64,000 nt of DNA from Escherichia phage MIZ6. Under the pieces are notes generated by a model, which was given only the letters and a program-made list of their open reading frames with translations, was not told where the DNA came from and made no database searches. The number at the start of each line of letters is the position of its first letter. Position 1 is the stretch's first letter. Made by a program: the position numbers and the translations under genes. The stretch lies in the sequence record OR192075.1; one strand, written 5' to 3'. Shown here one piece after another: positions 4,489-61,500 of this stretch.

Positions 4489-6054
4489 ATGTTTAGTAGA
4501 TTAAAAATGCTTGCGCGTTGGGCTGATTTTGACAACGACAAATACGAAGAACAAATTAAAGATAAAGCAGAGTCTATCGCCGCACCTAAAAACAATGATG
4601 GTGCTACGGAAGTAGAAATTAATGATAATTTACCTGCTAGCGCGTGGAACTCTCTTACCCAGCAATTTTACAGCACCGACCAGAAAATCAGCACAACTAA
4701 GCAATTAGTTAACACATATCGCGGTTTGATGAATAACCATGAAGTCGAAAACGCTGTACAAAATATCGTTAACGATGCGATTGTATTTGAAGAAGGTCAT
4801 GAAGTTGTTTCATTAAATCTTGAGGCGACTGGCTTTAGTGAATCTGTAAAAGAGCGCATTCATGAAGAATTTAAAGATCTTTTAAACACTATCCAGTTTG
4901 ATAGGCGCGGTCAGGATATGTTCCGTCGCTGGTATGTCGATTCGCGTATTTTCTTCCATAAAATCATCGGCAAAAATCCAAAAGATGGTATCGTAGAATT
5001 ACGCCAGCTTGACCCACGTAATCTTGAATACGTTCGAGAGATCATTACAGAAGACACACCGGAAGGTAAAATTTATAAAGCAACGAAAGAATATTTCATT
5101 TACACTGTAGGCAATAGCTCTTATTGCGCAGGTGGTCAAGTATTCTCTCCTAATAGTCGCGTTAAAATCCCGCGTAGTGCTATTACATACGCTCACAGCG
5201 GCTTGATGGATTGCGATGATAAATATATCATTGGTTATTTGCATCGGGCTGTTAAGCCAGCAAACCAGCTTAAATTGTTGGAAGACGCAATGGTCGTTTA
5301 TCGTATCACGCGTGCACCGGAACGCCGAGTGTTCTTTATTGATACCGGAAACATGAACAACCGCAAGGCTGCACAGCACATGAACTCAGTGGCACAGTCT
5401 TTTAAAAACCGCGTTGTTTATGATGCATCGACTGGTAAACTTAAAAACCAGCAAGCAAATCTATCAATGACAGAGGACTACTGGTTACAGCGTCGAGATG
5501 GTAAAGCAATCACCGACGTTACTACTTTACCCGGTGCATCCGGTATGAGTGATATCGATGATATTCGCTACTTTAACCGTAAATTGTATGAAGCGTTGCG
5601 TGTACCATTGTCACGCAGTAATCTCTCCGATGCTAATATGGTGATCGGTGGTGACGGTTCAGAAATTACTCGCGATGAGTTGGAATTTTCGAAATTCATT
5701 AGAACTCTGCAATCACAGTTTTCGGAAGTATTGCGCGATCCTCTGAAATATAATCTGATTCTCAAAAATGTAATTACGGAAGACGATTGGGATCGTGAAA
5801 TAAATAATATCAAGGTGGTTTTCCATCGGGACTCTTATTATACAGAAGTTAAAGACGCGGAAATTTTAGAACGTCGAATCGGTCTAATCGAACGTATTAC
5901 ACCTTACATTGGTAAATATTTCTCTAACCAGACAGTGATGCGTGACATTCTGAAATATACCGATGACCAGATGGACACCGAGAAGAAACAGATCGAAGAA
6001 GAAGCGAACGATCCGCGCTTTAAACAAACTCCCGATGAAATAGAGGATTTTTAA
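4489..6054 (+). CDS. 20: Portal vertex protein gp20
   Basis: 521-aa ORF; blocks such as IGYLHRAVKPANQLKLLEDA and TEDYWLQRRDGKA match T4 gp20. Confidence 0.95.
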   Translation: MFSRLKMLARWADFDNDKYEEQIKDKAESIAAPKNNDGATEVEINDNLPASAWNSLTQQFYSTDQKISTTKQLVNTYRGLMNNHEVENAVQNIVNDAIVFEEGHEVVSLNLEATGFSESVKERIHEEFKDLLNTIQFDRRGQDMFRRWYVDSRIFFHKIIGKNPKDGIVELRQLDPRNLEYVREIITEDTPEGKIYKATKEYFIYTVGNSSYCAGGQVFSPNSRVKIPRSAITYAHSGLMDCDDKYIIGYLHRAVKPANQLKLLEDAMVVYRITRAPERRVFFIDTGNMNNRKAAQHMNSVAQSFKNRVVYDASTGKLKNQQANLSMTEDYWLQRRDGKAITDVTTLPGASGMSDIDDIRYFNRKLYEALRVPLSRSNLSDANMVIGGDGSEITRDELEFSKFIRTLQSQFSEVLRDPLKYNLILKNVITEDDWDREINNIKVVFHRDSYYTEVKDAEILERRIGLIERITPYIGKYFSNQTVMRDILKYTDDQMDTEKKQIEEEANDPRFKQTPDEIEDF

Positions 6055-6297
6055 ATGAAACAATTTATCGAAGCAATTAAAACTCGCGATCTAACGCTGA
6101 TCGAAAAAGAATTTGATAAGATCATGGAGGCTAAAAAAGCCCAGATCATCGAATCCCAGCGTGTCGAAATCGCATCCAGTATCATGATCGAAGGTGAGGA
6201 AGAAAAAGACCGCGATGATGAAGAAGATATGGAAGATGAGGACGACGAAGACGAAGATCGCAAAGACGATAAAAAAGACAAAGAAGACGACGAATAA
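6055..6297 (+). CDS. 67: Prohead core protein gp67-like (acidic C-terminus)
   Basis: 80-aa ORF with Asp/Glu-rich tail, between genes 20 and 21 as in T4. Confidence 0.6.
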   Translation: MKQFIEAIKTRDLTLIEKEFDKIMEAKKAQIIESQRVEIASSIMIEGEEEKDRDDEEDMEDEDDEDEDRKDDKKDKEDDE

Positions 6298-6309
6298 TAG
6301 GAAGCCAAC

Positions 6310-6717
6310 ATGATTAAAGATTTTACTCCTAAAGCTGACTTAGAAACTTTTCTGCCGGAAGCACAGGAAAAATTGGACATGTTGGCTATGTTTGAGTCAG
6401 AAGAACTATTGAAAATCGTTGAAGGTATCTCCGAGGATGAGCCGGAACTGGCGGTAGCAATGCTGTCTATCATCGACGGAATTACTGTAAATGAAGCAAT
6501 GGTTAAACATGTAAACGCACGCGGGGAAGTTGCACGTAAGAAAGATCGCAAAACCCGTGAGCGCAATGCTTACATGACTACTGGCCTAAGCAAAGCTAAA
6601 CGCCGTCAAATTGCCCGTCGTGCTGCAAAAACCAAACGTGCAAATCCATCTATCGAACGTCATGCGGAACGTAAGCGCAAAAAAGCAATGCGTAAACGTA
6701 AGGCGTTAGGATTATAA
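6310..6717 (+). CDS. 68: Prohead core protein gp68-like
   Basis: 135-aa ORF with basic C-terminus; position between 67 and 21. Confidence 0.55.
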   Translation: MIKDFTPKADLETFLPEAQEKLDMLAMFESEELLKIVEGISEDEPELAVAMLSIIDGITVNEAMVKHVNARGEVARKKDRKTRERNAYMTTGLSKAKRRQIARRAAKTKRANPSIERHAERKRKKAMRKRKALGL

Positions 6718-53989: not shown

Positions 53990-54020
53990 AATATAATCCT
54001 CTCTTTGTTTTGATGTTTGT

Positions 54021-54048
54021 ATTATACACTATTGCGTTGCGCTGTCAA
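54021..54048 (-). promoter_or_regulatory. Early promoter cassette (TTGACA-16-TATAAT)
   Basis: -35 overlaps stop of upstream gene. Confidence 0.5.
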
Positions 54049-54374
54049 CCTTTTTGTTCCATGAAAAGCGGTGCTGTTTCTTCTTTCAGTTTAATAACTA
54101 GCGCGGAAACTTCATCAAGAAAATCTTTTTCCATATGAGCAAGCATTGATTTAGAATCTTTGATGACTTTCAAAGAATATTCACTTAGATTTCCTTGTCC
54201 TAACAATAATGCAGGATACACACTATGTGGGATCTCGATTTCATGATATTCGCTCATATTATAATATTTGTGAATTTTTAAATCTATATTTCTTCGTTGT
54301 ACGTCCACATCAGCAATGACATACAGAAGTTCGATTTTATCACTTTTCTGGGAAAGGGTAGCATTCAAAAACAT
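54045..54374 (-). CDS. Hypothetical protein (109 aa)
   Basis: SD CGGAGGATTAA before ATG. Confidence 0.5.
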   Translation of the reverse strand: MFLNATLSQKSDKIELLYVIADVDVQRRNIDLKIHKYYNMSEYHEIEIPHSVYPALLLGQGNLSEYSLKVIKDSKSMLAHMEKDFLDEVSALVIKLKEETAPLFMEQKG

Positions 54375-54403
54375 TGTTAATCCTCCGTTGTTTCGATGAG
54401 TTC

Positions 54404-54431
54404 ATTATACATTACCTCGCCAACATGTCAA
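54404..54431 (-). promoter_or_regulatory. Early promoter cassette (TTGACA-16-TATAAT)
   Basis: Minus-strand hexamers. Confidence 0.5.
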
Positions 54432-54454
54432 TACATTTTCATAAAATTTTAGGC

Positions 54455-54483
54455 AATAAAAAAGCCTCCCCGAAGGAAGGCTT
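54455..54483 (-). terminator. Rho-independent terminator after gene 32
   Basis: AAGCCT-CCCCGAAGGA-AGGCTT with A-run on plus strand. Confidence 0.6.
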
Positions 54484-54492
54484 TAAAATTCA

Positions 54493-55461
54493 TTACATCC
54501 CTAACAGAGCGTCAAGATCATCCAGATCAGAAGCGGAGGAAGTACCGCCACCCAGGTCCAGAGATGCCATCAGGTCATCAGCGGAAGAATCTAACGCCGT
54601 GCTAGCTGCGTTAATACCAACTACAGTGCTAGCTGCGGTAGTACCAGCGTCGAATGCATTCATCTGTGCGTCAAAATCATCAAGCTGGCTGTTAATCGCT
54701 GCCGCAGCACTGGAAGCCGCAGCACCAGCTACCATAGAAACGCCCATAGTTTTCTTAAATTTGGTTTCCAGTTCATCGAACGGTTTAAACTGGCTAGGCG
54801 CTACAATCTCACTCAGATCAACCATGTTTTCCATCAGATATTTCTGATATGCTTCGTCTTCAATTTTCGGAAGCTGTGATTGCTGCATGAAACGAGAATC
54901 ATCATAGTTCTGGTGTTTATCAACCTTCTTAGCTTTCAGGAGGAAGTTAGCACCGGAGAACACACAAGTTACATCTACCGGAACTTCGCCCATGTCGGTA
55001 TTCACGTTCACCATTGCAACGATCTTATCATAAATTTTCTGACCGAAGCGGAATTTGAATACCTTACCTTCATTTTCTGGTGCTTGAGGATCTTTCAGTA
55101 CCAGAATGTTTGCGTAGTAAGACGCTTTACGCTTAATCAGTTGCCATTCGGTTTTATCGGTATTGTATAGGTCTTTTTCGTTAATATATTTGCACACAGG
55201 GCAAGAATCAAAATCACCGTGGGTGCTGGAGCAGTTTTCCCAATACCATTTACCATTAACTTTGAAGGAATGGTTTACCAGTTTCACAATCGGCAGACCG
55301 TCTTCTGTCTTAGACGGCAGGAAGCGAATCAGGGCTTCACCGTTACCTGCTGCATCAGTCTTAATCTTCCACTCTTTCGGATCTTCTTTGGAGAAACCGT
55401 TGCCACCTTTCAGTGCGGCCAGTTGAGCTTGCAGTTTGGAAGAATCTTGGCGTTTAAACAT
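54493..55461 (-). CDS. 32: Single-stranded DNA-binding protein gp32
   Basis: From ATG 55461; [13 protein letters not shown], zinc ligands H-C-C-C, acidic C-terminus. Confidence 0.95.
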
Positions 55462-55521
55462 ATTCACTATTCCTTCTTTTGATTAATTTACTAGACTATT
55501 ATACAGATTTAAATTTACTTG

Positions 55522-56202
55522 TCAACTATTTGTTTCGGCTTTTAATTGAGATATTTCTTTACACTCTTTAACTACTTTAACAAATAATGCTCTTGCTTTT
55601 GCGGCGTCAATAACAAGTAGTTTCTTGTACGCCTTCATTTTAACACTATAAGTTTGCCAAATCAAGTCTTTGGCTACCTTGTCGTGTTCGTCGATTATAT
55701 TTAGAAAGCTATCTAACAACATAAAAGACTCAAACGATATAATCCGATTTTGCAGTAGTTTAAAGATACCGCTAGTTTCGGTTGCGGGATTGTATGTGAT
55801 TAGCTCTTTAAGAGTAACCCCGCGTTTCTCGGAGAAGTATACCAGACTTTTAATGTCATCGTCAAATCGTGTTGCTGCATCGGTTATCTTTCCTATGTAT
55901 TCCATATAAAAGCCGTATGCGTCAACATCAGTGATTTCACCTACCCATGCATCGGTATTGGCTACCAGATTGCTTAGGAATAGGAAGTATAGTTCTCTTA
56001 GATTGTACTTTTCCGCTAATTTTGCGAAATAATACTTATCTCTGCGTTTATTGAATGCGGCATCAGACAACCGCATCCTCCAATTGTATTTTACACAATC
56101 ATAACGCCCGTTCATATGAGCTTTCATCATGCAATATAACATATACACAGATTTAGCATTAATTCGCATATCTGGATCTGGAGGAAGACGGTTTCTGATC
56201 AT
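55522..56202 (-). CDS. 59: Helicase loader gp59
   Basis: KSVYMLYCMMKAHMNGRYD and YFAKLAEKY blocks match T4 gp59. Confidence 0.9.
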   Translation of the reverse strand: MIRNRLPPDPDMRINAKSVYMLYCMMKAHMNGRYDCVKYNWRMRLSDAAFNKRRDKYYFAKLAEKYNLRELYFLFLSNLVANTDAWVGEITDVDAYGFYMEYIGKITDAATRFDDDIKSLVYFSEKRGVTLKELITYNPATETSGIFKLLQNRIISFESFMLLDSFLNIIDEHDKVAKDLIWQTYSVKMKAYKKLLVIDAAKARALFVKVVKECKEISQLKAETNS

Positions 56203-56211
56203 ACATACCCC

Positions 56212-56481
56212 TTAAATATCGAGAGTGTTGGTCGGTTCGTCGATCACTCCCTTCCTGAGCGTTCTATTTACTATACATTCTTGTGTGATCTTGTCAATAA
56301 TGGACACCGGAATATACTTCTGATAGTGACCATATTCGATAGAGTTTTCCTCTACAAACTGCGTTGTCGCTTCAAGATAAGTCAACCCCTCTTCAACAAC
56401 CAGTTTTTCGATTGCAAGACCGTTTGCTGTTTTATTCGCGGCTTTTACCGCATGTTCATTAAGCATTGAACACCCGATCAT
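56212..56481 (-). CDS. Possible late transcription co-activator gp33 (by synteny only)
   Basis: 89-aa ORF between gene 59 and dsbA, where gene 33 lies in T4; alternative ATG at 56466. Confidence 0.35.
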   Translation of the reverse strand: MIGCSMLNEHAVKAANKTANGLAIEKLVVEEGLTYLEATTQFVEENSIEYGHYQKYIPVSIIDKITQECIVNRTLRKGVIDEPTNTLDI

Positions 56482-56734
56482 AGAGTTCTACTGCTTCATC
56501 GCGTTCTGCTTCGAAGGTTTCGCGCTGTTGTTGGTGATACAGTTTAAACAGAATGCCCCACATTTTACCATCTACGCCTAATTCTTCTTTAGCACGCTGC
56601 TTGATCTCTTTGATCTTATCGCCGTATGCTTCTTGAATGGTTTTCTGATCGCTGGCTTCTTTAATCAGTTGTGCCAGGGTATTTCCGTGCACTGCTTCGT
56701 CAAATACTACTTTTTCTTTTTTCTGTTCAGTCAT
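56459..56734 (-). CDS. dsbA: dsDNA-binding protein DsbA
   Basis: VFDEAVHG ... LGVDGKM ... VELYD blocks match T4 DsbA. Confidence 0.75.
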   Translation of the reverse strand: MTEQKKEKVVFDEAVHGNTLAQLIKEASDQKTIQEAYGDKIKEIKQRAKEELGVDGKMWGILFKLYHQQQRETFEAERDEAVELYDRVFNA

Positions 56735-56738
56735 AATA

Positions 56739-57335
56739 TTAACCCTCTTTCGTCATTAATTGAAAACCACGTTCAGCTTTTGAGATTTCGCTAGGACTTA
56801 AATCGTCACCAACATATTCTAGCATCATTTCTCGGATAATGTCAAGTGCTTTTTCATCACCTGATTTTAACTCGAACTCAAGTTCATAGTGAGCATCTCC
56901 AATTCCTTCGCCTAAACGTCGATAATAGAAAGTGTCTTTGCACATTTCCACTATACCACAACCCATATCTAGAGTCAATGACTTGCGATGTGTCATTATT
57001 TGCATTAGAGGAATGACATGTTCTGAGTTCACCCCTAGACTATCAACAAAATGGGCGAACTCATCCCATTTTGAAAACGTCATTTCCTCACGGTTGAACA
57101 GTCCAGATTCACCATCGACAATTTTGACCATGACTAATGTTCTATAAACGTCAAGTCGTGCATAAATTCCTTTTCGACGTAGTGCATGGTCTTCGGTATC
57201 ATAATAAAATTCGTGTTTTAATATGTTATCTCGGTCGACGAGATTGTACCCGTCATACATTGCCACCCACACATCACAGATTGTTTCCACGCCTTCATGT
57301 GAATGAGCATAGTATTTTAATTCAAGCTCTCTCAT
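56739..57335 (-). CDS. CYTH-like (triphosphate tunnel metalloenzyme) domain protein
   Basis: 198 aa; N-terminal ELELKY (ExExK), central YDTEDHALRRKGIYARLDVY, C-terminal HYELEFELK. Confidence 0.5.
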   Translation of the reverse strand: MRELELKYYAHSHEGVETICDVWVAMYDGYNLVDRDNILKHEFYYDTEDHALRRKGIYARLDVYRTLVMVKIVDGESGLFNREEMTFSKWDEFAHFVDSLGVNSEHVIPLMQIMTHRKSLTLDMGCGIVEMCKDTFYYRRLGEGIGDAHYELEFELKSGDEKALDIIREMMLEYVGDDLSPSEISKAERGFQLMTKEG

Positions 57336-57345
57336 ATGTCAACCC

Positions 57346-58293
57346 TTAGAACTCACCAATTTTCTGCAACATTTTAACTAACGCATTTGTTACAAAATAG
57401 TTATAAATTTTACCGCGTGGTGCTGGTTTAGATTTTTCCCATGCTAACAAAATTTCATATTCGATGTTATCGGGAATAAATTCAAAATCAATAAGTTCGC
57501 GGTTTTCGTCAAAGCGTCGTGCTTCTTCCTCTGTCATCAAAGACTTTGGATCTTCGGCATCGAAAATTTGCTCTAACCATTTGGTTGCAATTGGTTTAGC
57601 TCGTTCCCCTTCCAGTCGTGAGATAATGAAATCGCTACGGCACTTGATAGAAGCTACACCGTCTTTTGCGTCACCCTTAACACATTTTACCATAAGGTCT
57701 TTGTAAGGGCTACCGTATTTGCATTTCTTCCATGCTTTCTGTACTGGTGCCCACTGTTTCACGTTTTTGTATTTGTGCAACTGTGTGTAGTCACCATCGC
57801 CGGAGTTGATTAGCACCTGGCGACCTTCTACAGAAAACTTTTTAGTTAATACAGCGATTATATCATCCGCTTCAACTTTGTCAACCTTAATAACGTGATA
57901 AGGCATGTTCTCTTTAAACTCTTCGGTGATCTTATTGATCGCAGCAAAGATCATCTCCCAATCACGCGGATCTGCGTCTCGTTTTTCCTTACGGTTGCGT
58001 TTATAGTAAGGGGCGATATCACGTCGCCAGTAACCTTTACTTGAATCAAAGGCAAGTACCGTAATTGGGTATTGCTCTTTGAATTTTGTCATATTATAAC
58101 GCATGGTGTCAAGGATAAGATGACGGATCATGCCTTCATTAATAGGATCTTCCGGTTTAAAGGTATGCGAGATAGTAGCAATCATAAGCTGCGACATATC
58201 AATCAAATGCACACCTTCCGGCAGTTTATCTTCTGGATCATCGAAGAAATCATTAAGTGTAGCGGTAGTTTTTGTAAACGGGTTATACGTCAT
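57346..58293 (-). CDS. rnh: RNase H (5'-3' exonuclease / flap endonuclease)
   Basis: EADDIIAVL and SGDGDYTQL acidic motifs; resembles T4 RNase H. Confidence 0.9.
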   Translation of the reverse strand: MTYNPFTKTTATLNDFFDDPEDKLPEGVHLIDMSQLMIATISHTFKPEDPINEGMIRHLILDTMRYNMTKFKEQYPITVLAFDSSKGYWRRDIAPYYKRNRKEKRDADPRDWEMIFAAINKITEEFKENMPYHVIKVDKVEADDIIAVLTKKFSVEGRQVLINSGDGDYTQLHKYKNVKQWAPVQKAWKKCKYGSPYKDLMVKCVKGDAKDGVASIKCRSDFIISRLEGERAKPIATKWLEQIFDAEDPKSLMTEEEARRFDENRELIDFEFIPDNIEYEILLAWEKSKPAPRGKIYNYFVTNALVKMLQKIGEF

Positions 58294-58295
58294 AA

Positions 58296-58481
58296 TTAAG
58301 TTCTCTCCACTCTCACAACAACATATTCACCAAACGAGTTAGATACTTCACGGTCATACCCGTACTTTTCCATAACTCGCAGAATTGCATTGTTTAATTC
58401 GGCACGGAAATAATTATAATCCTTATCAGGGATTCTGTCAACTACCCATTTTGCACCTTCTGACAAATCAACTTTAACCAT
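58296..58481 (-). CDS. Hypothetical small protein (61 aa)
   Basis: ORF abutting rnh. Confidence 0.4.
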   Translation of the reverse strand: MVKVDLSEGAKWVVDRIPDKDYNYFRAELNNAILRVMEKYGYDREVSNSFGEYVVVRVERT

Positions 58482-58519
58482 AATATATCATCCTCTTTTG
58501 TTTCTATCAAGCCTTATTT

Positions 58520-58527
58520 TATAAATA
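58520..58527 (+). promoter_or_regulatory. Late promoter TATAAATA upstream of gene 34
   Basis: Exact TATAAATA; SD AAAGGAGA; ATG 58556. Confidence 0.7.
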
Positions 58528-58555
58528 TGAACATACTATAAAAGGAGACCCAATA

Positions 58556-61500
58556 ATGGCAGATTTTTCTCAACATTTCAAGGCCACATTTGGCTTTGAC
58601 GCTGGTAATGAAAAGGTCGTCAATGTAGCATACGCAGATAAAAACACATCAACGGATGCGGTCAACGTTGAATTTTTCAATTACCATAATGGTATTACTC
58701 AGTATGACACAACTCGCGGTTATGATCAATACGGAACTACAATCTATCAAAACCGTCCGTATTATGCAAAAGAAGATATCACAAAGCCAGCAGGTGATTT
58801 TGACCCGACTAAATGGCAAGCACTGCGCACCGATCCACGTTGGGATTATATTGCAGCAACTTCCGGTGATACTCCTTTAAAGTCTGGTGATTATATCGCA
58901 GCAGATGGTCAATTTGCAAACTTGACTTTCTCTATGCCAACTAAACCAGCAGAGGGAGACACTATAACAGTAAAAGATATCGGTGGCAAGTGTGGTGTTA
59001 ACGAATTATCGTTCTTGAGTTCAGGACATGAGTTTTACCATAACGGTAATGTGTATAACCGAAAATGGTATTGCACTACCCCGTATGCAATGAACTATTT
59101 CATCTTTGTTCGGAATCGTTGGCATGTTTATCAGACGGGAACAGAGCCGCGCGGTGTGTACGCACAGCCAGCGATTGATGCTATTCAAATGCAGAATGGT
59201 GACCAGGTATTTCGTCGTAGTTCGTTGGGTAATATTACCTTAGTGCTTCCTAAGTTTGCCAACAATGGCGACATGATCCAGACTACAGACCTTGACGGAT
59301 TAACCGCAACCAACCACGTTACGGTTAAAGTTCATGAGCACGCAGAAGAACAATCAATTGGCACGTCCGGTCTAAAAGAGATTATCGGTAAGCGTAGCGG
59401 TCATGGTGTATTCATCTTTGACAAGACGGAAAACTTATGGCGTTTGTGGGATGGTGATCAGTCTGTTCGTCTTAAACCGATCATCGATGACACTCGCTTG
59501 CAACCTAATAGCTATGTTGCTGTATTTGGTGATCGTGATGTTACTCTGACGCTGCCGACCAATGTCGAGCCGGGTGATCGTATTCAAGTTTCTATGCAGT
59601 ATATGCACGGAAACCAGAATTGCCGTATTATCACCCCCACAGAGGATACAAAAATCCTTATGCAGAAAAACATGGTTCAGTTTCCTAAGCGTAGCGAGTA
59701 CCCATTCAACGGGACCGACACATGGAAGGAAGTGTCTGAATTGTCGTTCAATGCGGCTAGTGATTATGTACCTTATCTGGAGTTCTCTTATTCAGAAGGT
59801 GATGATGGTAAGAAACATTGGCTGGTAGCACACTCTCATCCGATCGTCGAACGAGTAGACCCTACTCGTAAAGAGCGTGTTGGTGTAATTGCACTGGCTA
59901 CCCAGGATGAAACAAACAAAAACCATGAAGATAATCCTAGCGACGAAGTTGCGGTGACTCCAAAGGTTCTGGCTAATAAAACAGCCAACGAAACTCGACG
60001 CGGTATTGCTCGCATTGCAACTCAAGCGGAAACGCATCAAGATACTGGTTCCAACTTCCTGGATGATGTTATCGTTACGCCTAAAAAGTTAAATGACTGT
60101 GTTGCTACCGAAGCCCGTCGTGGTGTGATGGAAATTGCAACCCAGCACGAAACCAATGAAGGTTTAGACGATACCCGCGCTATTACTCCTAAGAAATTAG
60201 AAGAACGTCGCGCTTCCGAAGATCTCGCTGGTATTGCTGAAATTGTTCAGGTTGGCGGTAGTGCTGCCGCTCGACGTGGCGAAGCTGGTACAGGGATCTA
60301 TAACATCAACGACCATGCTAAAATTGTTACGCCAAAAAACATCAACGAGGTCAAGGCGACCGAAACTTCCCGTGGTGTTGGCTATCTGGCAACTGACGCG
60401 GAAGTGCAAGGGGCTACAGAATCAACCCCGCAAGATGCTTTACTAATCACGACTCGCACGCTAACGAAACGTACTGCTACCGAATCGCGCACTGGTATCG
60501 CTGAAATTGCAACTCAGGAAGAAACAAACTTAGGTCAAAGTGATAACCATATCATCACGCCTAAAAAGCTGCATACTCGCCGCGCAACGGAAACTTTACA
60601 TGGTTTAGCAGAAATTGCAACTCAGCCGGAATTTGACGCAGGTCTTGACGATGCTCGCATTTCTACTCCATTGAAGATTAAAACCTTCTTTGAGAATGCA
60701 CAGCGTTTGAAAGTAGATCCGACTCAGGGGCTTAACCTTACTGGTGATTTGTGGCAAGGTATCATGATCAGCGGTCTGGATGCAACCGAAGACACAAAAG
60801 GTGTCGCTAAAGTTGCTACTACTCAGCTTACGGATGCTGGTCAAGATGATACTACAATCATCACGCCTAAAAAGCTGCAAGGCAAAAAAGCCACCGAAGG
60901 TAAAGAAGGTATTATCCGCGTTGGTACTCAAGCCGAAACCGTGGCTGGTACACTGGCTAATGTAGCAATTTCTCCGAAGAACTTCAAATATGTTGTTCAG
61001 ACAGAGGATACATGGAAAGCAACCGAAGCTCGTCGTGGTTTCTTGAAAGTTGCTACTCAGGAAAACTGTTTTGTTGGTGACAATCTGCAAGGTTCTACTC
61101 AAGAACTAGGAAACTACCAGCATGACGGAATTGCTGTTACTCCGAAAGGATTAAACTACGCACTTGCTAATTTCTTACCTAAGATGGCAACCGCTCAGAA
61201 TAGTTTGAAATTGGGTAACGTAGAGGCCGCTAAATGGGCGCGTAGAGACATTGACCAGACCATAGAGAGCAATTACACGTTTAATAAAAACGTTAACGTG
61301 AAGGGCGATTTAGGGTGCTTAAAATCTGGTTCCTTTGAAACTCTTTCTGTGACTAAGAACTCTACTGATGTTCCGAGTAATGGTCATCTGGTGTTGGGTA
61401 AGCGTGGAGTTGACGGTCACACCGGAATTACTCTGCATGGTACAACCGCATCGGAAGGCATGAAAAACTCGTGGTCTATTATCGTTGGTGGTACTGGAAC

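Follow-up and report, generated by a model that had tools for sequence, protein, structure and literature searches.

A predicted stand-alone triphosphate tunnel enzyme with a fixed active site and a fast-evolving gene body in RB49-like phages

Between the RNase H gene rnh and dsbA of Escherichia phage MIZ6 lies a 198-codon gene whose product is assigned here, on the basis of profile searches and a predicted structure, to the CYTH / triphosphate tunnel metalloenzyme (TTM) superfamily. The gene occupies positions 56739-57335 on the minus strand of the window, by which we mean the whole 64,000-nucleotide stretch analysed (sequence record OR192075.1). From its residues and its setting, it probably encodes an active, stand-alone, early and metal-dependent TTM of the hydrolase type. 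The most likely substrate would be a small-molecule triphosphate, either inorganic triphosphate (PPPi) or short polyphosphate, as for Escherichia coli YgiF, or a nucleoside-like triphosphate.

The open reading frame (ORF) list of the window confirms the frame and its position between dsbA and rnh, with an ATG start. The protein begins with MRELELKYY, placing an ExExK motif (ELELK) at residues 3-7, and it carries a central block, YYDTEDHALRRKGIYARLDVY, at residues 44-64; both elements had been named in the original prediction, which was made from the letters of the sequence. The same prediction took HYELEFELK for the end of the protein, which it is not: this segment spans residues 149-157 and is followed by 41 more, including a conserved helix, SKAERGFQL. 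Upstream, rnh (57346-58293) is separated from the gene by 10 nt, and downstream dsbA (56459-56734) follows after 4 nt. On the minus strand the order is a small ORF, rnh, the CYTH gene, dsbA, 33, 59 and 32, while gene 34 lies on the plus strand, divergent from the rnh-dsbA-33-59-32 block. The G+C content of the gene is 39%, compared with 41% for the window. The window matches Escherichia phages MIZ2 and MIZ3, both Krischvirus phages of the RB49 type, at 100% identity, and other Krischvirus genomes, such as RB49, Phi1 and JSE, at 93-97%; the source is a 'pseudo-T-even', RB49-like phage and not T4. The frame is a real gene rather than a chance one, because it is kept in 58 phage records, evolves with a ratio of nonsynonymous to synonymous divergence (dN/dS) of 0.19-0.38 and matches PHROG 14893 (E = 7e-123), a group annotated as 'unknown function'.

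Profile and structure comparisons agree on the CYTH/TTM identity that had been proposed from motifs. The window protein matches Pfam CYTH (PF01928) with E = 7.6e-5, as do 13 of 19 close relatives (best E = 5.8e-8), and precomputed PF01928 assignments are found on most database relatives; NCBIfam gave no match at E <= 10. Searched against PDB sequences, the family profile retrieved E. coli YgiF only, aligned end to end over its tunnel domain, and hhalign against YgiF residues 1-200 returned a probability of 95% with an alignment spanning YgiF residues 3-199. A single-sequence phmmer search of the PDB yielded noise only (TriTu immunity protein at E = 0.25, a UTP-glucose-1-P uridylyltransferase, and YgiF at 0.96). 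The AlphaFold2 model, computed from 19 sequences, reaches a mean predicted local distance difference test (pLDDT) of 89.9 and a predicted template modelling (pTM) score of 0.83, and comprises eight long strands, as in the eight-stranded tunnel, with helices between them and one C-terminal helix. In a Foldseek search of the PDB with this model, YgiF ranked first (E = 6.5e-12, TM score 0.75 on the query), and other CYTH/TTM structures came next, the weaker matches including some Mediator Med18 chains.

The residues that carry out catalysis in YgiF have counterparts in the phage protein. Structures and mutants of YgiF and AtTTM3 indicate that YgiF E160 binds metal 1 together with the triphosphate, that metal 2, coordinated by E4, E6 and E162, positions the attacking water, and that R56 is the likely proton donor, with K69 assisting substrate binding (PMC4641920). 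Using hhalign, phage E3, E5 and K7 pair with YgiF E4, E6 and K8, R60 with R56, R82 and E84 with R81 and E83, E151, E153 and E155 with E158, E160 and E162, and the SKAERG motif with SKAARG. The phosphate-binding lysine K71 corresponds to YgiF K69 by the HMMER alignment and by 111 of the 149 distant homologues, whereas the printed hhalign alignment is off by one column here. All mapped catalytic residues are invariant across nine aligned sequences, the two most distant relatives among them (32-35% identity in that alignment), and they match the majority residue among distant CYTH proteins. For the latter comparison, 45 members of the phage clade were set against 149 distant CYTH representatives in the same profile alignment. 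ExExK is present in 44 of the 45 clade sequences, the remaining one being a fragment, and R60, K71, R82, R117, K186, R189 and E151/E153/E155 are conserved in the clade as well as in over 90% of the distant representatives, except for K71 (111/149) and R189 (128/149). Conservation of the acidic tunnel residues, on which the CYTH assignment had been made to depend, is borne out in relatives down to about 31-37% identity, and the basic ones are kept as well.

Because its catalytic motifs are the same as those of YgiF, the phage protein presumably uses the same two-metal hydrolysis chemistry. By this analogy, the site-2 metal, held by E3, E5 and E155, would activate a water for its attack on the terminal phosphate, R60 would protonate the leaving group, and the products would be orthophosphate and a shortened, di-phosphorylated compound.

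Several points weigh against an active hydrolase. The window protein alone scores 23.0 bits, just under the Pfam CYTH gathering score of 23.2, and its structure is a predicted one. Low variation in the tunnel does speak for an active enzyme, mean column entropy within the clade being 0.24 bits at tunnel-facing positions, 0.95 at other strand positions and about 0.85 in helices and loops, but the tunnel-facing set was defined by strand alternation anchored on conserved residues, making the contrast partly circular. In Escherichia phage vB_EcoM_G2494 (L016, MK327935.1, 401-996), a 1-nt deletion at codon 59-60 leaves the CYTH gene as two annotated coding sequences; this reflects a sequencing error or else a naturally occurring null allele, and in the second case the host used for isolation may not require the gene. 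A plain PPPi hydrolase would seem redundant beside the host's own YgiF, and our literature search found no biochemical or genetic study of any clade member. Lastly, the HMMER alignment shifts strand beta3 by two residues, so that R60 falls on YgiF R58 and the catalytic R56 is matched by Tyr58; were this register correct, the proton-donor arginine would be absent, as it is in cyclases. We prefer the hhalign register, in which R60 equals YgiF R56, because the spacing from YYD to the arginine is 16 residues, ungapped and identical in the phage protein and YgiF, because the first arginine falls on R60 in 141 of 149 homologues, and because model strands 57-62 and 67-76 pair K71 with Tyr58, like the K69-Gly54 pairing expected in YgiF through its Asn-Gly turn. 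Some residual doubt remains.

The same register bears on whether the protein could be a class IV (CyaB-type) adenylate cyclase (AC-IV), one of the family members listed in the original prediction, which would make cyclic AMP to manipulate host regulation by CRP. The records of phages AV108, PHB13 and KMB43 carry 'adenylate cyclase' as a product name, and the HMMER register of beta3 puts a residue other than arginine at the first-Arg position, as in cyclases. AC-IV enzymes are recognized by HF four residues before ExExK, a small residue in place of the first beta3 arginine and alanine in place of the second glutamate of ExE (Vogt et al., PMC8233210). An HFxxxxExExK motif is impossible in the phage protein, where only M-R precedes an ExExK that begins at residue 3; the first arginine is kept as R60 under hhalign and in the homologues just counted, which the HMMER register would reverse; and E155, the second glutamate of ExE, is invariant where AC-IV strictly has alanine. 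Compared with CyaB and Yersinia pestis AC-IV (PDB 2FJT, 3N0Y), the phage protein therefore departs from all three motifs, lacking HF and keeping both the first arginine and the second glutamate. The 'adenylate cyclase' names were transferred by automatic annotation pipelines and are very probably wrong, and on these motif grounds cyclase function, which we set aside, appears extremely improbable.

While the catalytic residues are those of YgiF, other positions predicted to line the tunnel are not. At position 58 the clade has Tyr where most distant CYTH proteins have Ala, Ser, Gly or Thr; position 60, in between, is the shared arginine; and position 62 is Asp in 43 of 45 clade sequences (Asn in P0045, the other being a fragment), as opposed to Arg in 113 of 149 distant representatives. 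Position 136 is Phe in the clade and Gly in 83 of 149 distant proteins, position 138 is Tyr in the clade and Ile, Val or Tyr elsewhere, and position 115 is Thr in the clade where Phe is commonest among distant proteins. Judged by strand alternation and homology rather than by geometry, these clade-variant side chains should face the tunnel. In thiamine triphosphatase, Trp53, at the position equivalent to phage Tyr58, stacks on the substrate thiazole within a W/YxRxR motif (PMC8233210). The mammalian 25-kDa enzyme (PDB 3BHD, 5A64) has W/YxRxR where the phage clade has YxRxD, and its overall similarity to the phage protein is lower than that of YgiF; Tyr58 of the phage clade sits at the place of the aromatic residue of thiamine triphosphatases (cluster 8 of the sequence similarity network), and the two most distant phage relatives have Val and Ile there.

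These differences bear on the choice among substrates. A small-molecule triphosphate is ranked first because the nearest relatives act on small molecules and because the plug helix is retained. The tunnel domain of YgiF (PDB 5A60/5A61) is the best match in both sequence and structure, at an identity of only 22-26%, with ExExK, the catalytic arginine, the Lys69 equivalent, R-x-E, ExExE and the SKxxRG plug-helix motif in common. However, YgiF, whose type makes up the CYTH-CHAD inorganic triphosphatases of network cluster 1 (PMC8233210), is a 433-residue protein with a linker and a polyphosphate-binding CHAD domain, both of which the phage protein lacks, ending at residue 198 after the plug helix; and the small-x-R-x-R motif of YgiF beta3 (G54, R56, R58) is replaced by Y58-x-R60-x-D62, with Phe for the common glycine at position 136. 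The substrate may therefore differ from the inorganic triphosphate of YgiF. The changes to Tyr58, Asp62, Phe136 and Tyr138, together with the presence of YgiF in the host, lead us to favour a nucleoside-like triphosphate over PPPi or polyphosphate, and hint at a substrate with an organic, perhaps aromatic, moiety rather than plain PPPi. Since the two most distant relatives lack Tyr58, this hint applies mainly to the Krischvirus clade proper.

The replacement of the second arginine of RxR by aspartate in 43 of 45 clade sequences could also be taken as a sign that catalysis has been lost, leaving a non-catalytic triphosphate sponge or a structural or regulatory protein of the replication or late-transcription complex. 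The fast evolution of the protein surface and the location of the gene among DNA-replication and late-transcription factors would fit such a role. On the other hand, the metal ligands and the catalytic arginine are invariant over deep divergence, which would not be expected of a mere binder, and mutating the AtTTM3 arginine equivalent to D62 to alanine has little effect on activity (PMC4641920). We consider a non-catalytic protein very unlikely.

The gene is confined to one lineage of phages but fixed within it. Using tblastn, the CYTH protein was found in 58 phage records, all Krischvirus, and an RNase H at least 95% identical to the neighbouring one was found in exactly 58 records, indicating that every Krischvirus in the collection has the CYTH gene. 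In all 58, it lies between rnh and dsbA. In contrast, no gene separates rnh from dsbA in Tequatrovirus RB32 (T4 type), Jiaodavirus KpV477, Biquartavirus Asfd_1 and Schizotequatrovirus PVA8. This upholds the earlier impression that T4 has no CYTH gene at this position and makes the gene a Krischvirus-specific insertion, within a gene block that ranks among the most conserved of the Straboviridae. An exhaustive profile search of 1.84 billion representative proteins added only four further clusters at E < 1e-15 (P0040, P0043, P0044 and P0045). The three most diverged clusters (50%, 37% and 34% identity) lie on metagenomic contigs with the order rnh - CYTH - dsbA - 33, and by these comparisons the gene is old within its phage lineage. 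A scan of IMG/VR returned three loci only, all Krischvirus, and tblastn with two distant metagenomic relatives as queries found no isolate outside Krischvirus. A word-indexed protein search recovered only close Krischvirus-type relatives; the profile search was required to reach P0044-P0046 and cellular CYTH proteins.

The best cellular match in the profile search is an archaeal CYTH protein (P0046, E = 3e-13), followed by ordinary 200-residue CYTH and 500-residue CYTH-CHAD proteins (E = 1e-11 to 1e-4). This nearest cellular relative, of 201 residues, is encoded on archaeal metagenome contigs (L009/L010, region 4797-6606) directly after a gene of the PRK/uridine-kinase family, with RNA ligase and NUDIX genes nearby, and the adjacency of kinase and CYTH genes recalls the kinase-TTM fusion of plant TTM1/2. 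As a clue to the function of the phage gene, the archaeal neighbourhood (PRK-type kinase, RNA ligase and NUDIX) proved uninformative.

T4-like and jumbo phages carry scattered stand-alone CYTH genes, for which an action on nucleotide pools has been proposed. The CYTH proteins of Aeromonas phages (Aeh1 ORF004c, 65.2, D3) and the CYTH triphosphatases of jumbo phages likewise stand alone, but are structurally distant from the Krischvirus protein (Foldseek E = 1e-4 to 4e-3, TM score 0.4-0.5). This distance, along with the lack of a CYTH gene in the rnh-dsbA slot of the four other genera examined, suggests that the Krischvirus gene and other phage CYTH genes were separate acquisitions.

Within Krischvirus, the CYTH gene diverges considerably faster than its neighbours. 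Relative to the window, phage Skers is 97% identical in rnh, 99% in dsbA and 100% in gp33, but 58% in the CYTH protein. On contig L011 the corresponding values are 81%, 81%, 80% and 50%, and on contigs L003 and L004, where no rnh value is available, dsbA is 77% and 69% identical, gp33 79% and 76%, and CYTH 37% and 34%. Pairwise Nei-Gojobori estimates give dN/dS of 0.19-0.38 for the CYTH gene as opposed to 0-0.12 for rnh, dsbA, 33 and 59, and dS too is higher in the CYTH gene than in these four. The CYTH protein is under purifying selection, but it is either much less constrained than its neighbours or drawn from an older, more exchanged pool of alleles.

The DNA alignment of the window (56739-57335) with Skers (L001, 4001-4600) and RB49 (L002, 3001-3597) reveals a mosaic. 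The first 55 nt or so of the coding sequence and roughly its last 150 nt, together with both flanks, are near-identical among the three, synonymous sites included, while the middle of the Skers allele is deeply diverged, large parts of it being near 50% identical in DNA by eye. Two CYTH allele classes thus circulate in otherwise near-identical genomes. Column entropy is 0.96 bits in the central part and 0.34 bits in the 3' part. We rejected a strong protein-level constraint on the conserved C-terminal 50 residues: synonymous sites are conserved there too, so the conservation is at the DNA level. Its cause may be recombination with the conserved dsbA flank, the promoter-like sequence embedded at 56845-56816, or both.

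Gene 32 may show similar local exchange. In L006 (IMGVR_UViG_2974573495_000001), a very similar Krischvirus contig, gene 32 aligned over 245 codons has dN = 0.15 and dS = 0.67, whereas the value in other comparable Krischvirus genomes is about 0.013-0.015, pointing to a further local mosaic, or an insertion, in this gene. In some members of the genus, gene 32 is bordered by homing-endonuclease genes: in Skers an HNH gene is inserted between 59 and 32 and a GIY-YIG gene follows 32 (L001, 5802-6398 and 7554-8597), and in RB49 an 'endonuclease' follows 32 (L002, 5963-6594), while the window has no insert between 59 and 32.

Promoter predictions are consistent with early expression of the CYTH gene. 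A consensus scan of 54300-58700 found 24 sigma-70-type matches on both strands, compared with 12.5 +/- 3.7 in shuffled sequences; the minus strand carries the majority of these matches and every one of the best. Several lie inside coding sequences, namely the small ORF, rnh and the CYTH gene itself (57342-57314 and 56845-56816), and besides those listed in Table 1 there are perfect 12/12 sites at 55525-55498 and 54431-54404 on the minus strand. RB49 uses sigma-70-like early promoters and late promoters, with no MotA or middle promoters, and novel ORFs in RB49-type phages are generally preceded by early promoters (PMC1524935). The dense matches fit RB49-type early promoters embedded in a polycistronic block, and the perfect site inside rnh is a likely source of transcripts covering the CYTH gene. 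The only convincing minus-strand terminator lies after gene 32 (54484-54461); a weak terminator-like site in gene 59 and another on the opposite strand in rnh do not fall between the promoters and the CYTH gene. The gene would probably be co-transcribed early with rnh from sigma-70-type promoters, within the rnh-dsbA-33-59-32 block.

Table 1. Positions in the window of the CYTH gene, its candidate active-site motifs and associated expression signals.
Feature	Position	Strand	Basis
Coding sequence; predicted stand-alone CYTH/TTM tunnel protein, 198 residues, orthologue of RB49ORF244c / RB49p245	56739..57335	minus	
ELELK, codons 3-7, beta1; E3/E5 predicted metal-site-2 ligands, K7 = YgiF K8	57315..57329	minus	hhalign, PMC4641920
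YARLD, codons 58-62, beta3; R60 predicted catalytic first Arg, D62 replaces YgiF R58	57150..57164	minus	hhalign, PMC8233210
K71, predicted phosphate-binding lysine, beta4 (YgiF K69)	57123..57125	minus	HMMER alignment, PMC4641920
R82-E83-E84, beta5 (YgiF R81 and E83)	57084..57092	minus	hhalign
R117, putative tunnel arginine, beta6	56985..56987	minus	R in 45/45 clade, 140/149 distant
ELEFELK, codons 151-157, beta8; E153 predicted metal-site-1, E155 predicted acidic-patch glutamate	56865..56885	minus	hhalign, PMC4641920, PMC8233210
SKAERG, codons 185-190, C-terminal plug helix motif common with YgiF (SKAARG)	56766..56783	minus	HMMER, hhalign
Fast-diverging central part, codons 19-148	56892..57281	minus	DNA alignment, per-gene identities, column entropy
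AAGGG resembling a Shine-Dalgarno sequence, in the 10-nt spacer between rnh and CYTH, 7 nt ahead of the ATG	57343..57347	minus	read from sequence
Perfect sigma-70/RB49-early-type promoter TTGACA-16-TATAAT with TG, inside rnh	57857..57884	minus	consensus scan, inferred
Perfect sigma-70-type promoter TTGACA-17-TATAAT, in the small ORF upstream of rnh	58413..58441	minus	consensus scan, inferred
Promoter-like TTGACA-18-TAGAAT, 11/12, with TG, in the CYTH 3' part, ~80 nt before the dsbA ATG	56816..56845	minus	consensus scan, DNA alignment

The setting and the evolution of the gene raise two further explanations. The first is that the protein is an RNA 5'-triphosphatase that removes the gamma-phosphate from the 5'-triphosphate (5'-ppp) ends of host or phage mRNA, feeding 5'-end-dependent decay by RppH and RNase E, or from pppAC-type lagging-strand primers, which are those that the neighbouring RNase H removes. 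The position of the CYTH gene, right after rnh in the replication block, is kept across lineages at 31-50% identity, and the E. coli enzyme that converts 5'-ppp to 5'-diphosphate RNA, acting before RppH, is still unidentified. Gene order in T4-like phages is an unreliable guide to function, however, and Pfam mRNA_triPase (PF02940) gave no match even at E <= 10. Cet1-type RNA triphosphatases, which act on 5'-ppp RNA and come from fungi, protozoa and large DNA viruses (PDB 1D8H, 2QY2, 4PN0), share the tunnel fold and the glutamate-rich metal site of beta1 and beta8, but neither the profile nor the closest structure of the phage protein is Cet1-like; it retains the YgiF-type plug helix SKAERG, and the structural ranking lends no support. 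Furthermore, the characterized bacterial stand-alone TTMs tend to prefer PPPi or nucleoside triphosphates, and an RNA 5'-triphosphatase seems to us quite unlikely.

The second explanation is an enzyme of counter-defence or host takeover that destroys a triphosphate-bearing nucleotide produced by the infected host, such as the chain-terminating 3'-deoxy-3',4'-didehydro-nucleoside triphosphates (ddhNTPs) of viperins, 5'-ppp linear oligonucleotides or an alarmone. Such a role would suit a gene that is probably expressed early, evolves faster than its neighbours around a fixed active site, exists as two deeply diverged alleles swapped by recombination between near-identical flanks, and carries aromatic and acidic tunnel substitutions in the clade. 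Neither PADLOC, which matched neither the CYTH protein nor the 61-residue upstream ORF, nor the literature searched contains a link between CYTH proteins and defence or counter-defence; that literature held no experimental study of any phage CYTH protein and no phage CYTH enzyme with an assigned role. The gene is also fixed in 58/58 Krischvirus genomes at one conserved site rather than in a variable accessory island, and an overall dN/dS below 0.4 would equally be expected from relaxed constraint on an accessory enzyme. We regard this explanation as improbable. Even in a broader form that spans both ideas, an early, fast-evolving factor, no redundant copy of the host inorganic triphosphatase, that strips the gamma-phosphate either from 5'-ppp RNA ends or from a defence-made nucleotide (a ddhNTP or 5'-ppp linear oligonucleotide), the proposal is rather doubtful, and this judgement includes the version in which the protein would be the 'missing' RNA triphosphatase before RppH/RNase E decay or would process pppAC primers beside RNase H. 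If it were true, the two diverged alleles and the variable surface would reflect host conflict.

Other features of the region were noted alongside the CYTH gene. The overlap of dsbA with gene 33 measures 23 nt (56459-56481) and is likewise annotated in RB49, RB32 and KpV477. The 61-residue ORF (58296-58481, minus strand), an orthologue of RB49p247, lies between the divergent promoter region of gene 34 and rnh; it is present in Krischvirus records, with an 85-residue ORF at the equivalent place on contig L011, and no ORF of this type occurs in RB32, KpV477, Asfd_1 or PVA8, in which rnh directly follows the intergenic region. A T4-type late promoter core, TATAAATA, is found on the plus strand at 58520-58527. 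It precedes the gene 34 start (58556) by ~30 nt and stands back to back with the early-type promoter region of the minus strand. An Rfam search of both strands of 54000-59000 yielded one sub-threshold match only, to the STnc100 small RNA (54452-54526, minus strand; 24.7 bits where the gathering score is 47, with E = 0.02), which overlaps the gene 32 terminator hairpin and is most likely a chance match to it.

The CYTH identification is itself already known from the literature and from GenBank notes. The window protein is the same gene as RB49ORF244c / RB49p245 (NP_891816), with 83% amino-acid identity and the same rnh-dsbA slot; nothing substantive differs between the two, the MIZ2/MIZ3-type allele being one variant among several. 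RB49ORF244c appears in Nolan et al. (2006) under 'CYTH domain' with E = 0.0026, and the RB49 RefSeq record notes 'similar to ... HI1598, ygiF', dating the ygiF/CYTH annotation in the RB49-like group to 2003-2006. Newer records use either 'inorganic triphosphatase' (Makalu phages) or 'adenylate cyclase'. The former appears closer from the motifs, although two features that define YgiF do not hold in the phage protein. To this, the present analysis adds confirmation of the fold by structure prediction, the exclusion of the cyclase label, which corrects a misleading name on some records, the YxRxD tunnel variant, and the finding that, within a conserved block, the body of the gene recombines and evolves fast while its active site stays fixed.

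The result is a gene fixed across a genus at a conserved site in the replication and late-transcription block, with a complete predicted catalytic site and a divergence several-fold faster than that of its neighbours. It would gain importance if its substrate were something other than inorganic triphosphate. Were its targets RNA 5' ends or immune nucleotides, the enzyme would represent a new enzymatic class in phage host takeover or counter-defence, and might point to the bacterial RNA gamma-phosphatase.

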